Of a stretch of 12,591 nt of DNA, positions 1,182 to 6,583 are shown one piece after another; position 1 is the first letter of the stretch, and every line of letters begins with the position of its first letter. This stretch comes from a virus, in the UHGV virus genome UHGV-1346634; one strand, given 5' to 3'. Position numbers and translations under genes: made by a program. The notes beneath the pieces were generated by a model. It saw only the letters and a program-made list of their open reading frames with translations. It ran no database searches and was not told the origin of the DNA.

Positions 1182-1411
1182 CTCACAATTCAGGCGGTTG
1201 ACAGTTGTCTGATTTGCGGGGCGTTTGTTAAAAGAAACTGGCATGGTGAATCCCCCTGAGCGGAGGGGCATATCAGCGACAGGTGTTTGGTTACATCCCT
1301 TATCCTTTCTGTGCGGGTTCAGGTGCTGATACTGAACTCACCGGGAGGCACCCGGCACCATGCAATGGCACATAGCGCCACTCTCCAGCCCCTCTCCGGA
1401 GGGGCTTTTCT
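1182..1411 (+). repeat. Copy A of a diverged ~230-bp direct repeat with two GC-rich hairpins; candidate small-RNA or regulatory element
   Basis: Shares with copy B the blocks CTCACAATTCAG, TTTGTTAAAA, CATGGTGAATCCCCCTG.GCGGAGGGGC, CTGAACTCACCGGGAGGCACCCGGCA.CATGCAATG and ACATAGCGC.ACTC.CAGCCCCTCTCCGGAGGGGCTTT. Hairpin 1 is at about 1252-1269, hairpin 2 (terminator-like) at 1387-1406. Confidence 0.7.
1387..1411 (+). terminator. Intrinsic terminator at the 3' end of repeat copy A
   Basis: 8-bp stem AGCCCCTC / GAGGGGCT with loop TCCG, followed by TTTTCT. Confidence 0.6.
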
Positions 1412-1599
1412 GTGCCGGATACATCACAGTTTCTGGAACCTTGGGTACTACAGTATCAGTCAGGGTGCTATATTTTCAGATGTGATGAAAGCCTGTCAGC
1501 AGGCAGGGCGTATCGGAAATGACCCAGTAGAGAAAACGTTGACTCAGATACCGGTGCTGAGTTACCGGGAAACCGGCATCACATGACCGCTATCCTTCC

Positions 1600-1627
1600 A
1601 GGCCCATCCGCTCCGGTGGGCCTTTTT
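1600..1627 (+). terminator. Intrinsic terminator between the two repeat copies
   Basis: 10-bp stem AGGCCCA(T)CCG / CGGTGGGCCT with one bulged T and loop CTC, followed by a T-run at 1623-1627. Confidence 0.6.
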
Positions 1628-1664
1628 ACTGCAGAAAACAGGTTCCCCGTTAAATGCTATGTTG

Positions 1665-1900
1665 CTCACAATTCAGTCAGTTGAAGGTTGTCTTCCCGAC
1701 TGAGAATTTGTTAAAAAATTTCTGCATGGTGAATCCCCCTGTGCGGAGGGGCGGCTGGTGTACGGTATGGTCTCTGATGATCGTTAGCGAGAATGACGCG
1801 GGTTCGGTGGCACCGGGCTGAACTCACCGGGAGGCACCCGGCATCATGCAATGAACGGTACATAGCGCTACTCCAGCCCCTCTCCGGAGGGGCTTTCTTA
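1665..1900 (+). repeat. Copy B of the diverged ~230-bp direct repeat
   Basis: Same conserved blocks as copy A in the same order with a divergent middle. Hairpin 1 at about 1735-1751, hairpin 2 at 1875-1894. Confidence 0.7.
1875..1900 (+). terminator. Intrinsic terminator at the 3' end of repeat copy B
   Basis: Same 8-bp stem AGCCCCTC / GAGGGGCT with loop TCCG as copy A, followed by TTTCTTAT. Confidence 0.55.
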
Positions 1901-2122: not shown

Positions 2123-4102
2123 ATGACATTTAAACACTACGATGTGGTCAGGGCGGCGTCGCCGTCAGACCTTGCGGAGCGACTGACTCAAAAACTGAAG
2201 GAGGGGTGGCAGCCATTTGGCAGTCCTGTCGCCATCACGCCTTATACCCTGATGCAGGCCATTGCGGCGGAAGGTGATGTCACCACACCTGTGGTGGTGA
2301 AGCCGTCGGATGGAGAAGGCACAGTTATCAGCACCACCAGCGAACCGGAGTATTACTTTGTTGTTGTTCTGGCGGGGCAGTCAAACTCAATGTCTTTTGG
2401 TGAAGGGCTGCCGCTGCCGGAGACATATGACCGTCCGGACCCGCGTATTAAACAGCTGGCGCGTCGCAGTACGGTGACGCCGGGTGGTGCCGCCTGTAAA
2501 TATAACGACATCATTCCGGCAGACCACTGTCTGCATGATGTGCAGGATATGAGTAACCTGAATCATCCTCATGCAGACCTGAGTAAGGGACAGTACGGTT
2601 GTGTGGGGCATGCTCTGCATGTTGCCAAAAAGCTGCTGCCGTTTATGCCTGCGAATGCGGGTATCCTTCTTGTTCCATGTGGCCGTGGCGATTCGGGATT
2701 TACTGCGGGGGCCGAGGGGGCGTTTAACGAAGCGTCGGGAGCGACCGCAGGCTCGTCCCTGTGGGGGGCGGATAAACCGCTGTATCATGACCTGGTCAGC
2801 AGAACCCGTGCGGCCCTGAAGAAAAATCCGAAGAACGTGCTGTTATCAGTGATCTGGATGCAGGGAGAAAAAGATGTCAGTTCGGGGAGACATGCAGAAC
2901 ACAATGCGCTTTTCCTTGCCATGGTAAATCAGTTCCGTACGGAACTGGCAGATGTGGCAGAGCAGTGTACTGGCGGGACAACGGCCAGCGTCCCGTGGAT
3001 TTGCGGTGATACCACGTACTACTGGAAGGAAAGGTATGCAGCGCCGTATGAGGCGGTTTACGGTGGGTATAAAGGAAAAGCTGCGCAGAATATTCACTTT
3101 GTGCCGTTGATGACGGATGAGCATGGTGTGAATGTGCCGACAAACGAGCCGTCAGAAGATCCGGACATTATCCCGGCGGGATACTATGGCGCTGCGTCAC
3201 GCACTGCCAGTAACTGGACGGCAGCCGATCGTAAAACGCACTTCAGTTCATGGGCGCGAAGAGGCCTTGTTTCAGACCGCCTGGCAGGTGCCATTTTGCA
3301 GTACGCCGGGCGGACATTATCGTTCCTTACCGGGCAGAGCGCACCGCAGTCGGGTGGTACAACGCCTGTCAGTCCGGGGACACCGGATGTTGAGAAACCG
3401 CAGGATGGCGGTGTTGCTGGTACTGGTCATGATGAGGCCGTGAGCAGTACCAGGACGGTGGCTGAATATGATGCGAACAGTGGAAATGGTGCATTGACAG
3501 AGCAGCAGTGGGGCGCTTCCGGCGGCAAAGGCACTGTGACTGATGACGGTGGACGGAAAGCGCTGCGACTGGAAAAACAGCCCGGTAAACTGACGTCCTG
3601 GAAAATGTTCCGTACTATTGCAGTGGAGGAGGCAAAAAATCTTCTCAGCAAGGGGGGGGAAATTGCCGTACGGTTCAAAATTCCGGATGGAAGCGAGCTG
3701 GTGAACGGACAGTTTGTCTTTGGTATCTACTGGCCGGTGTCGCAGTGGGCGTCAGGCGCGACAGCAAACAGTATGCTGGCATCATTCTTCCTTCAGACGG
3801 ATACATCAAATCTTAATCTGATGCACCAGAAGGGCTCCTCGAATGCACAACTGGGTACATTTGGTACGTTTGACCATAACTGGCATACGGTTGTTTTCCG
3901 CTTTGCGGGAAATAACAGCGAAAGAGTTGTTCCGGTGATTGATGGTGCAGAGCAGACGGCATTTGACCTTGTGATGTGGACAAATGATGGCTTTACAGCA
4001 GATACGCTGACGCTGACAGATATCACGGGGGCAAAAGCGACGTATCCGGTACTGCTTGATACGGTCACAGTCAAAGTTAACGAAAGCCGGGCATCATCAT
4101 AA
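2123..4102 (+). CDS. nanS-p: Prophage sialate 9-O-acetylesterase (NanS-p type)
   Basis: 659-aa ORF with RBS GGGAGG 4 nt before the ATG. SGNH-esterase motif LAGQSN (in VVVLAGQSNSM) and a DUF1737-like N-terminus. Size and position match the large esterase ORF downstream of stx in 933W-type phages (from memory). Confidence 0.8.
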   Translation: MTFKHYDVVRAASPSDLAERLTQKLKEGWQPFGSPVAITPYTLMQAIAAEGDVTTPVVVKPSDGEGTVISTTSEPEYYFVVVLAGQSNSMSFGEGLPLPETYDRPDPRIKQLARRSTVTPGGAACKYNDIIPADHCLHDVQDMSNLNHPHADLSKGQYGCVGHALHVAKKLLPFMPANAGILLVPCGRGDSGFTAGAEGAFNEASGATAGSSLWGADKPLYHDLVSRTRAALKKNPKNVLLSVIWMQGEKDVSSGRHAEHNALFLAMVNQFRTELADVAEQCTGGTTASVPWICGDTTYYWKERYAAPYEAVYGGYKGKAAQNIHFVPLMTDEHGVNVPTNEPSEDPDIIPAGYYGAASRTASNWTAADRKTHFSSWARRGLVSDRLAGAILQYAGRTLSFLTGQSAPQSGGTTPVSPGTPDVEKPQDGGVAGTGHDEAVSSTRTVAEYDANSGNGALTEQQWGASGGKGTVTDDGGRKALRLEKQPGKLTSWKMFRTIAVEEAKNLLSKGGEIAVRFKIPDGSELVNGQFVFGIYWPVSQWASGATANSMLASFFLQTDTSNLNLMHQKGSSNAQLGTFGTFDHNWHTVVFRFAGNNSERVVPVIDGAEQTAFDLVMWTNDGFTADTLTLTDITGAKATYPVLLDTVTVKVNESRASS

Positions 4103-4107
4103 CCGGC

Positions 4108-4144
4108 AAAAAAAACCGCCAGCGGCAGGAACGGAAGCTGGCGG
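4108..4144 (-). terminator. Terminator-like hairpin with the U-tract on the minus strand, just after the nanS-p stop
   Basis: A8 run at 4108-4115, then stem CCGCCAGC (4116-4123) / GCTGGCGG (4137-4144) with a long 13-nt loop. On the + strand there is no downstream T-run. Confidence 0.3.
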
Positions 4145-4241
4145 AGGTAATTCCAATGGAGAATGTAAAGAAAAGATGCTTTCGTATATCGGTTTTTTAA
4201 ATGAAAACAGTTCTCATTGTCAACCATAACGGTAAGAAACT

Positions 4242-4806: not shown

Positions 4807-5022
4807 ATGTACCAGATGGAAAAAATCACAACAGGTGTGTCATACACCACGTCAGCGGTGGGAACGGGCTACTGGTTCCTGCAGTTGCTGGACAGGGTTT
4901 CCCCGTCTCAGTGGGCGGCAATAGGCGTGCTGGGGAGTCTGCTGTTTGGTCTGCTGACGTACCTGACGAACCTGTATTTCAAAATTAAAGAAGACCGGCG
5001 TAAGGCGGCCCGGGGAGAGTAA
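4807..5022 (+). CDS. S: Class II holin (pinholin, S21-like) with dual start
   Basis: 71 aa; near-identical in pattern to phage 21 S ([23 protein letters not shown]...[21 protein letters not shown], from memory). Two in-frame starts at M1 (4807) and M4 (4816), the usual antiholin/holin arrangement. A SAR endolysin follows. Confidence 0.9.
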
Positions 5023-6049: not shown

Positions 6050-6583
6050 ATGAACGCAAAAATCAAATACGGCCTGTCAGCTGCTGTTCTGGCGCTGATT
6101 GCCGCAGGGGCTTCTGCGCCTGAAATCCTCGACCAGTTTCTGGATGAAAAAGAAGGTAACCACACCACGGCATACCGTGATGGTGCGGGTATCTGGACCA
6201 TCTGCCGTGGAGCCACCCGGGTGGATGGTAAGCCTGTGATTCCTGGCATGAAGCTGTCGAAGGAAAAATGCGACCGGGTTAACGCTATCGAACGGGATAA
6301 GGCGCTGGCATGGGTGGCGAAAAACATCAGAGTGCCACTGACCGAACCTCAGAAAGCGGGTATTGCGTCATTCTGCCCGTATAACATTGGCCCCGGTAAG
6401 TGTTTCCCGTCGACGTTTTATAAACGAATTAATGCAGGCGATCGCAGAGGAGCGTGTGAAGCGATTCGCTGGTGGATTAAGGACGGTGGCAGAGACTGCC
6501 GTATCCGCTCAAATAATTGTTACGGTCAGGTATCCCGGCGTGATCAGGAGAGTGCGCTGGCATGCTGGGGTATCGACAGGTAG
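6050..6583 (+). CDS. R: SAR endolysin (phage lysozyme, P21 R-type)
   Basis: 177 aa. N-terminal Gly/Ala-rich weakly hydrophobic signal-anchor-release segment GLSAAVLALIAAGASA. Catalytic E-x8-D-x5-T triad within EGNHTTAYRDGAGIWT. Matches the P21 R lysozyme pattern. Confidence 0.85.
   Translation: MNAKIKYGLSAAVLALIAAGASAPEILDQFLDEKEGNHTTAYRDGAGIWTICRGATRVDGKPVIPGMKLSKEKCDRVNAIERDKALAWVAKNIRVPLTEPQKAGIASFCPYNIGPGKCFPSTFYKRINAGDRRGACEAIRWWIKDGGRDCRIRSNNCYGQVSRRDQESALACWGIDR

Follow-up and report, generated by a model that had tools for sequence, protein, structure and literature searches.

A probable cluster of small RNA genes of the STnc100 family in the late region of a lambdoid prophage

The window analysed here, a stretch of 12,591 nucleotides (nt) from the UHGV virus genome UHGV-1346634, is the late region of a lambdoid prophage, and its segment 1183-2022 is probably a small RNA (sRNA) gene cluster lodged in the "moron" slot of the late operon. 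We favour, with good confidence, an independently transcribed, moron-like cluster made of three head-to-tail units of the STnc100/EcOnc27/PasD type (called A, B and C below) and one convergent gene on the minus strand. Units A and C belong to the STnc100 family and have its architecture and promoter geometry, and the array that they form with unit B recurs in other genomes.

An earlier note on this DNA had described two diverged direct repeats of about 230 bp as candidate prophage sRNAs. This interpretation is supported for both copies, in a family that is already catalogued and in its usual genomic slot. What is new here is anatomical: a third unit, the promoters and predicted RNA ends, a partner of the AsxR class on the opposite strand, a pseudoknot supported by covariation, and tails that behave like cassettes.

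Results

The repeats belong to the STnc100 family

The two direct repeats, 1182-1411 and 1665-1900, do align globally, with 175 of 248 columns identical (71%) and 30 gap columns, most of the differences falling in the middle. Five blocks of 73-100% identity link them at spacings of 483-490 nt (1159-1210/1642-1693, 73%; 1224-1269/1707-1752, 85%; 1332-1367/1818-1853, 97%; 1364-1383/1854-1873, 85%; 1383-1408/1871-1896, 100%). Both match the Rfam model STnc100 (RF02076) over model positions 1-206, unit A at 1212-1417 (139.7 bits, E = 1.9e-31) and unit C at 1695-1905 (167.2 bits, E = 1.7e-38). These are full-length matches at 3-3.5 times the gathering score of 47 bits, and the consensus helices of the family (closing helix, 5' hairpin, P3 and P4) are present together with a 3' intrinsic terminator. 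The repeats are thus members of the STnc100 family, not chance matches.

STnc100 was first reported in Salmonella and is abundant in Salmonella and E. coli prophages, and several of its members are expressed. In strain EDL933, 11 copies have RNA-seq reads and one was confirmed by Northern blot (PMC5331693). EcOnc27, identical to sRNA103, lies immediately 3' of stx2B and overlaps an STnc100 annotation (PMC12711010, PMC7873438); it was detected by Hfq crosslinking next to AsxR in the Sakai prophage Sp5 (PMC4104026), and both crosslinking and analysis of cDNA (Hfq-CRAC) and Northern blots document it (PMC4104026, PMC7873438). PasD1 and PasD2 of enteropathogenic E. coli (EPEC), which Zhu, Shabalina and Storz (bioRxiv 2026) linked to STnc100, give Northern bands of the predicted size and many chimeras with mRNAs in Hfq RIL-seq (sequencing of interacting RNAs after ligation; PMC8550237).

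The position of the repeats had also been likened to that of sRNAs from prophages of enterohaemorrhagic E. coli (EHEC), and the Sp5 sequence bears this out: STnc100 scores 207.7 bits there, begins 75 nt past stx2B and directly adjoins AsxR, which scores 88.1 bits and is encoded on the other strand. Eight Sakai prophages carry such convergent pairs of Hfq-binding sRNAs ("dyads") in the moron site downstream of PR', the short minus-strand partner being AsxR or AgvB (Tree et al. 2014, PMC4104026). The sRNA interpretation is therefore supported both by the match of the two copies to an expressed family and by the same layout in the Sp5 reference case. The copies are neither AgvB nor AsxR; they are the plus-strand partners of that class, and the AsxR-class gene is found at a minus-strand hairpin that the note had also listed.

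At least one unit is present in 2771 of the 5426 complete E. coli genomes, and the whole A-B-C array in 359 of them, with identities of up to 97.8%; RefSeq shows no feature under the best E. coli array matches. Scanning 596 gigabases of contigs with the motif GCATGGTGAATCCNCCT (16 specified bases, too short for this purpose) returned almost only chance matches in unrelated phyla, the sole real locus being one from Superficieibacter (L074).

A tRNA-like origin of the repeats, considered for a GGUGAAUCC segment and a CACCA motif, was ruled out by the absence of transfer RNA (tRNA) signal from both ARAGORN and Rfam: ARAGORN called no tRNA in the window, and positions 1000-2200 gave no match to the Rfam tRNA clan even at E ≤ 10.

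A diverged third unit lies between them

The count of two copies has to be revised. The two named copies stand, and a third unit (B; plus strand, 1480-1629, about 150 nt) lies between them, so that there are three in all. In a relaxed Rfam search unit B matches STnc100 over its full length at 1456-1629, with 30.1 bits (E = 4.9e-5), below the gathering score, and it is only 54-57% identical to units A and C; it is best called a diverged relative rather than a curated STnc100 member.

Its helices correspond to those of its neighbours: P1 (1480-1487/1577-1584), H1 (1491-1504), P3 (1541-1547/1557-1563), P4 (1565-1576) and a terminator (1600-1623) followed by TTTTT. P1 keeps eight of eight pairs by way of four double substitutions (AUGUGAUG/CAUCACAU vs GCAUGGUG/CACCAUGC), and the pseudoknot described below is weak in this unit (5 bp). 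In other phage contigs there is a second variant of unit B in which H1 is replaced in a compensatory manner (CUGCC-GGAA-GGCGG for GCCUG-UCAG-CAGGC) and the terminator is likewise altered compensatorily, the upstream TGCTATATT element remaining unchanged. Among the 121 loci searched (120 phage contigs and the window), 13 contain unit B; it always follows a canonical unit at about 226-241 nt and, with a single exception, precedes a second one by 237-242 nt.

A covarying pseudoknot in the 5' domain

Unit A (plus strand, 1241-1412, about 172 nt) comprises a closing helix P1 (1241-1248/1356-1363), the hairpins H1 (1253-1257/1264-1268), P3 (1315-1322/1332-1339) and P4 (1341-1345/1351-1355), a pseudoknot (1271-1278/1324-1331) and a terminator (1387-1406) followed by TTTTCTG. 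Unit C (plus strand, 1724-1900, about 176 nt) has the same plan, with P1 at 1724-1731/1842-1849, H1 at 1736-1740/1747-1751, P3 at 1800-1807/1818-1825, P4 from 1827, a pseudoknot at 1755-1761/1810-1816 (CUGGUGU/GCACCGG) and a terminator at 1875-1894 followed by TTTCTTAT. The two GC hairpins seen earlier in each copy were thus an undercount, each RNA having four nested helices and a pseudoknot. RNAfold gives unit A -71 kcal/mol (z = -2.64) and recovers P1, P3, P4 and the terminator.

We evaluated this structure (the Rfam-type fold plus the proposed pseudoknot) on 40 distinct members, including the three units of the window, units from phage contigs and PasD types. Over this set 90.3% of the cells are paired; shuffles give 85.3%, and sliding the partners gives 38-47%. 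Fifteen pairs change on both sides, vs 7.3 in shuffles, and none of the 500 shuffles reaches the observed value. The consensus helices are paired in 93-98% of cases, and P3 contains five covarying pairs (for example GGGUUCAG/CUGAACUC, GGAUUCAG/CUGAAUUC, GGGUUCGG/CCGAACUC and GAGUUCUG/CAGAACUU).

The pseudoknot is formed by 6-9 nt directly 3' of H1, which are complementary to the P3 loop, and its two strands co-vary in at least four classes: (U)AUCAGC(G)/(U)GCUGAU(A); UAUCAGUAC/GUACUGAUA; CUGGUG(U) with (A,G)CACCGG, CACCAG or UACCAG; AAUGAUC/GAUCAUU, found in PasD; and UAAUGAC/GUCAUUG. Counted on MAFFT columns the helix is only 68% paired; because these columns are out of register by one between classes, we scored it per sequence as strand-loop complementarity, with cross-class and shuffle controls. 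Matched strands and loops have a mean energy of -9.9 kcal/mol and a mean run length of 7.0, vs -5.2 kcal/mol and 5.2 for the unmatched pairs. For the main classes the strand-by-loop scores are highest on the matched class, and in 2000 loop shuffles the observed total was never reached. A pseudoknot is absent from the Rfam consensus structure as cmscan prints it, and the comparative paper of Zhu et al. (bioRxiv 2026) does not mention one.

Since the pseudoknot strands covary, part of the "variable centre" of the repeats is structure rather than seed. The pattern of conserved ends around a variable centre holds; its reading as a pair of different seed regions is a conjecture.

RNAalifold proposes another pairing, in which the invariant GGUGAAUCCC pairs with GGGAGGCACC (1245-1254 with 1343-1352 in unit A, and the equivalent positions in unit C). 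Both segments are invariant, so covariation speaks neither for nor against it. We prefer the Rfam-type P1 and P4, because unit B, by inspection, cannot form GGUGAAUCCC/GGGAGGCACC while P1 covaries; the alternative pairing could be a second conformer or a tertiary contact.

The pattern of conservation also bears on two other readings of the units. In one, they would encode small proteins. Each RNA has an ATG at +3, open reading frames (ORFs) start at 1243 (28 aa), 1360 (41 aa), 1726 (31 aa) and 1793 (48 aa), a Shine-Dalgarno-like GGAGG (1344-1348) stands 11 nt before the ATG at 1360, and ribosome coverage reaches 3.2 for some EDL933 copies of STnc100 (PMC5331693). We find this hardly credible, given that the substitutions preserve base pairs and not codons, and that the frames are not conserved, the blocks shared by A and C being offset by 483, 486, 488 and 490 nt. 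The +3 ORF has 28 and 31 codons here and, read by eye, 8 in PasD; the ORF after GGAGG has 2 codons in unit C and overruns the terminator in unit A, and ribosome coverage itself varies about 80-fold among copies (PMC5331693). The GGAGG lies in P4, 11 nt before a conserved AUG (CACCAUGC), at 1344-1362 and 1830-1851, an arrangement that might explain the ribosome footprints on some STnc100 copies.

In the other reading, the RNAs would be protein sponges or decoys whose GGGAGGC and CGGAGGGG hairpins sequester a GGA-recognising protein (e.g. CsrA) or the anti-Shine-Dalgarno sequence. The near invariance of GGGAGGC in P4 across the 40 members and the three GGA-containing hairpins in each of units A and C fit this idea. 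We nevertheless regard it as highly improbable: the GGA of H1 is not conserved (GGUGGGG and GGCGGGG variants exist, and 12 of the 40 sequences are unpaired there), GGA is missing from unit B and from the PasD terminators, and direct evidence for protein binding is limited to Hfq.

Promoters and predicted RNA ends

The promoter region of unit A (1183-1240, plus strand) contains a TCACAATTCAG box (1183-1193), the -35 hexamer TTGTCT (1205-1210) and an extended -10, TGTTAAAAG (1226-1234); that of unit C (1666-1723, plus strand) contains the same box (1666-1676), TTGTCT (1688-1693) and the extended -10 TGTTAAAAA (1709-1717). Upstream of unit B, on the same strand, a putative extended -10, TGCTATATT, is present at 1466-1474 and is the same in both unit B variants. 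The 51 distinct upstream sequences of the family fall into two unrelated classes, which have -35 and -10 at the same distance from the RNA start: the -35-like hexamers are TTGTCT/TTGCCT or TTGACT/TTGATT, and the -10 is TAAAA(A/G), usually preceded by TGT and thus extended. In Salmonella LT2, RpoD was reported to occupy the promoters of the multiple STnc100 copies (PMC10794520).

The RNA starts can be placed by reference to PasD, for which RNA-seq coverage and Northern blots define PasD2 (172 nt, NC_011601 741157-741328) and PasD1 (173 nt, 1060260-1060432; PMC8550237). Position 741157, the 5' end of PasD2, is the G of GCATGGTGAATCC, and both RNAs begin exactly at the G of GCAUGGUGAAUCC, to which G1241 in unit A and G1724 in unit C are equivalent. 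By sequence and geometry, units A and C therefore reproduce the PasD arrangement of GCAUGGUGAAUCC at the 5' end, a length of about 172 nt and a promoter 7-8 nt upstream. The RNAs are predicted to run from 1241 to about 1412, 1480 to about 1629 and 1724 to about 1900. The repeats as first delimited are real; their left ends are not RNA starts, the RNA proper beginning about 59 nt downstream as judged by the PasD 5' end, so that each repeat consists of a promoter plus an RNA.

Two observations concern this promoter-proximal sequence. The TCACAATTCAG box recurs near -58 in units A and C and in most promoters of the family, and a similar element, ACTCACAACATTAT, is found at 2092-2105, with the nanS-p start codon about 20 nt further downstream. 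The PasD seed is reported to target the motif CUCACA (PMC8550237). The TCACAATTCAG and ACTCACAACATTAT boxes could be a regulator site, an sRNA target or a coincidence. Separately, a machine-learning study found variation in the promoter-proximal region of the STnc100 copy downstream of stx2a to be the strongest predictor of haemolytic uraemic syndrome (HUS), the lost predictive features downstream of stx2B being T<->C at +90 and a T deletion at +103 (PMC12711010). By count on a related Stx2a phage (locus L243, 1848-1862), these positions fall in or next to the extended -10 of the STnc100 unit and the spacer between -10 and start, which correspond to 1226-1240 and 1709-1723 of the window. The HUS-predictive variants would thus be promoter variants of an STnc100 unit, with the caveat that they were counted on a related phage and not on the authors' sequences.

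Terminators and exchangeable tails

As had been noted, the same 3' hairpin, AGCCCCTCTCCGGAGGGGCT, closes both copies (1387-1406 and 1875-1894); the T-runs that follow it are short and interrupted (TTTTCTGT and TTTCTTAT). The further hairpins proposed outside the copies were all found, on the plus strand at 1600-1623 and 1994-2017 and on the minus strand at 1931-1912. In total, positions 1000-2200 contain eight terminator-like sites on both strands, vs 1.1 ± 0.9 in shuffles.

Such a density raises the possibility of a cis-acting insulator, in which the plus-strand terminators (1387-1406, 1600-1623, 1875-1894 and 1994-2017) would mainly serve, in the lysogen, to keep transcription of the upstream cargo gene from running on into nanS-p and the lysis genes. 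Q-modified polymerase would pass them unhindered, and the RNAs would be by-products. There are indeed four plus-strand terminator-like hairpins within 640 nt, exactly between the cargo gene and the late genes; the number of sites far exceeds that expected, and such hairpins occupy the same slot in Sp5 and other phages. An insulator would leave unexplained why a core of 110-130 nt is conserved with covarying helices and a pseudoknot and why a conserved promoter precedes each unit; the homologues, for their part, build up as discrete RNAs that are bound by Hfq and turn up in chimeras with mRNAs. We consider it unlikely as the explanation of the array, although the two roles are compatible.

A second cis-acting scheme is a riboswitch-like or protein-responsive leader, whose 5' domain would sense a ligand or protein and control its own terminator and read-through into nanS-p, the tandem copies sharpening the response. 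The order of promoter, compact pseudoknotted domain and intrinsic terminator upstream of a gene is what such a leader would look like, and weak U-tracts would permit read-through. In addition, H1 and the terminator of the same unit have CCCCU..CGGAGGGG in common (1253-1268/1387-1406 in A; 1736-1751/1875-1894 in C). Because both elements carry it, the minimum-free-energy fold of unit C (RNAfold) pairs H1 long-range with the terminator, and the local hairpins are absent. Where family members have other terminators, this similarity is lost. A riboswitch-type switch involving H1 and the terminator was rejected, since the terminator type varies across the family while H1 stays unchanged. More generally, at least six tails and at least three terminators are joined to the same domain with no matching change in the domain and no conserved antiterminator pairing, PasD1 stands immediately in front of a holin gene, an esterase gene being absent there, what follows units A and B is in each case another promoter and not a gene, and Rfam gives no significant riboswitch or leader match. 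A leader is accordingly very unlikely.

The same comparison of phage contigs indicates that tails and terminators are exchanged as cassettes, since one 5' domain occurs with six or more unrelated 3' tails and three or more types of terminator. In units A and C the tail reads AAUGGCACAUAGCGCC(A)CUC(UC)C and leads into the CCCCUCUCCGGAGGGG terminator; the same tail also stands after stx2 in an Stx2a phage. The tail of Sakai EcOnc27 is that of the Rfam consensus, and in PasD and one other group the tails are long and C/U-rich and precede a GGCUGCGCAUGGCGCGGCC terminator. PasD is the only relative with an inferred seed, UGUGAG, which was deduced from RIL-seq targets, pairs with CUCACA and lies in the C/U-rich tail (PMC8550237). 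The PasD combination, a C/U-rich tail that contains UGUGAG and stands just 5' of a GGCUGCGCAUNGCGCNGCC terminator, is not seen in units A and C, whose printed sequence was read without a motif search. Their tails are nearly identical to each other. A comparable C/U-rich stretch of unit A (CCCUUAUCCUUUCUGUG) lies inside the domain, between the pseudoknot strand and P3.

A candidate convergent gene on the minus strand

On the minus strand, a candidate sRNA of about 65 nt (1906-1970), with a terminator at 1931-1912 followed by TTTTTT, occupies the AsxR/AgvB position. Its promoter (1976-2005; -35 TTGCGC at 2005-2000, -10 TAAAAT at 1981-1976) lies in a region nearly identical to that of AsxR in Sp5, with the common block ACGAAAAAGGCCGCGCAGTTGCGCAGCCTTATGAAT-CTGGTTAAAAT; the 5' end of AsxR was mapped by RNA ligase-mediated rapid amplification of cDNA ends (PMC4104026). 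The gene stays below the family models (AsxR 18.5 bits, E = 8.1, gathering score 63; no AgvB match, gathering score 56), the AsxR model recovering Sp5 with 88.1 bits as a positive control. Its layout is that of the known pairs: it is convergent, abuts an STnc100-type sRNA and has a conserved promoter and a Rho-independent terminator. It is therefore an AsxR-position paralogue with a predicted RNA product, not a curated member. The plus-strand terminator-like hairpin that overlaps its promoter (1994-2022; hairpin 1994-2017, then TTTTT), upstream of the nanS-p leader, is found at the same place in Sp5 and in the Stx2a phage.

Genomic setting

The array is flanked, as had been proposed, by a methyltransferase gene (N6 DNA methylase ORF, 141-1076) and by nanS-p (2123-4102, a nanS-p-type SASA/DUF6645 esterase). 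Genes for holin (4807-5022) and for lysozyme (6050-6583) follow, so that with a tRNA fragment and the methylase upstream and the esterase, holin and lysozyme downstream the location is the late region typical of STnc100. The tRNA fragment (1-52; Rfam tRNA, 38 bits), which is the 3' part of a gene truncated by the window edge, resembles loci annotated as tRNA-Arg and fits the phage tRNA cluster found upstream of the cargo gene in Shiga toxin (Stx) phages.

Two further features were observed at the edges of these genes. A 7-bp tandem repeat, GCTGGTC x 7.9 (1084-1138, 97% matches), begins 8 nt past the stop codon of the methylase, just upstream of the unit A promoter region, and is possibly a slippage-prone tract. 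A strong minus-strand terminator-like hairpin, CCGCCAGC...GCTGGCGG followed by TTTTTTTT (4109-4145), adjoins the nanS-p stop codon, at the position, between esterase and holin genes, where EPEC has the minus-strand sRNA PasA. A PasA homologue was rejected there, as blastn gives only a 15-nt match, in the terminator; the hairpin may belong to a different convergent sRNA.

Discussion

We propose that each unit of the array is served by a sigma-70 promoter of its own, with an extended -10, and by a separate intrinsic terminator, and would yield an RNA of 150-176 nt. Judging from the relatives, the units would be transcribed in the lysogen independently of the Q-dependent late promoter, and the RNAs would end at their own, rather weak, terminators and accumulate in association with Hfq. 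They may then act in trans by pairing with host and prophage mRNAs through single-stranded variable segments, the candidates being the C/U-rich insert that separates the pseudoknot strand from P3 and the tail that precedes the terminator, with the pseudoknotted 5' domain serving as a stable scaffold. During lytic growth, Q-modified polymerase would presumably read through all terminators. No rival explains the data as well as this cluster of sRNA genes, and an insulator, leader or sponge function could coexist with a role in trans. An antitermination RNA similar to put of HK022 was considered and dropped, since Northern blots of PasD and STnc100_4 show short, discrete RNAs.

Several points weigh against this proposal. 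Transcription, Hfq binding and targets are attributed to the array by analogy with its relatives. A generic sigma-70 scan of 1000-2200 called no plus-strand promoter, which we explain by the -10 hexamers TAAAAG and TAAAAA, neither of which ends in T. In units A and C the U-tracts are short and interrupted, which is unfavourable to termination and to Hfq binding. A core of 110-130 nt as highly conserved and pseudoknotted as this one is unusual among Hfq base-pairing sRNAs and may hint at a different or a further function. UGUGAG, the seed of PasD, cannot be seen in units A, B and C as printed, in which no motif search was run, and if the seed lies in the tail, as in PasD, units A and C would be redundant and not differently targeted, because they have the same 3' tail. 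Canonical STnc100 itself has no firmly established target or phenotype; its function is given as unknown in reviews based on Rfam, and the only reported effects, on fimZ and espA, come from over-expression (of EcOnc27/sRNA103; PMC7873438).

Comparison with known systems places the array close to several of them, with a number of differences. Units A and C have the helices, 3' terminator and prophage late-region location of STnc100, but here the family forms a three-unit head-to-tail array and the AAUGGCACAUAGCGCC... tail is unlike those of the Rfam consensus and Sp5. EcOnc27/sRNA103 resembles it in its slot, which follows the moron cargo gene and precedes an esterase ORF, in the promoter and 5' domain and in the convergent short minus-strand sRNA; Sp5, however, has a single unit with stx2AB as cargo, whereas here there are three units and a DNA methylase. 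Its pseudoknot class (CUGGUG/UACCAG) resembles that of unit C while tail and terminator differ, and the over-expression effects are not transferable to the units described here.

PasD1 and PasD2 of EPEC E2348/69 (EcOnc13 in EHEC) share the 5' end at GCAUGGUGAAUCC, the length of 172-173 nt, the architecture including the pseudoknot, and a position upstream of an esterase or holin gene. They differ in scoring 38-41 bits on the STnc100 model, in the -35 TTGACT, in lacking a canonical P4 and in their UGUGAG-bearing C/U-rich tail with another terminator, a tail and seed that units A, B and C, as printed, do not show. PasA and PasD occur in distant rather than tandem copies (Zhu et al., bioRxiv 2026). 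The minus-strand gene has the convergent position and almost the promoter region of AsxR/AgvB (RF02703/RF02702), a similar length (about 65 nt vs 51-60) and a terminator hairpin that abuts the STnc100 terminator, but its body has diverged, and the plus-strand repeats are not of this class. By analogy only, OmrA/OmrB and PrrF1/PrrF2 are likewise adjacent, independently transcribed paralogues with shared and divergent segments; unlike the units here, they are core-genome genes with known regulators and targets and no large structured domain.

A bolder reading, which we regard as possible but doubtful, is that the 5' domain is a pseudoknotted module with a function of its own, such as protein or ligand binding or nuclease blocking, to which interchangeable seed-terminator cassettes are attached, and that unit B represents an unrecognised, deeply diverged subfamily missed by current Rfam thresholds.

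For the most part the finding bears out what is already annotated: few sRNAs of enterobacterial genomes are annotated more often than those of the STnc100 type, and the EHEC prophage sRNA dyads downstream of PR' have been known since 2014. Because RefSeq leaves the arrays unannotated, a four-gene sRNA cluster is invisible next to the cargo genes of Stx-type phages. The pseudoknot, the exchange of tail cassettes and the hidden third paralogue provide testable structure-function hypotheses for the STnc100 family. If the 5' domain were indeed a module that receives cassettes, a frequently annotated enterobacterial sRNA of unknown function would be a bipartite, scaffold-plus-guide RNA, and arrays such as this one would deliver several guides at once.

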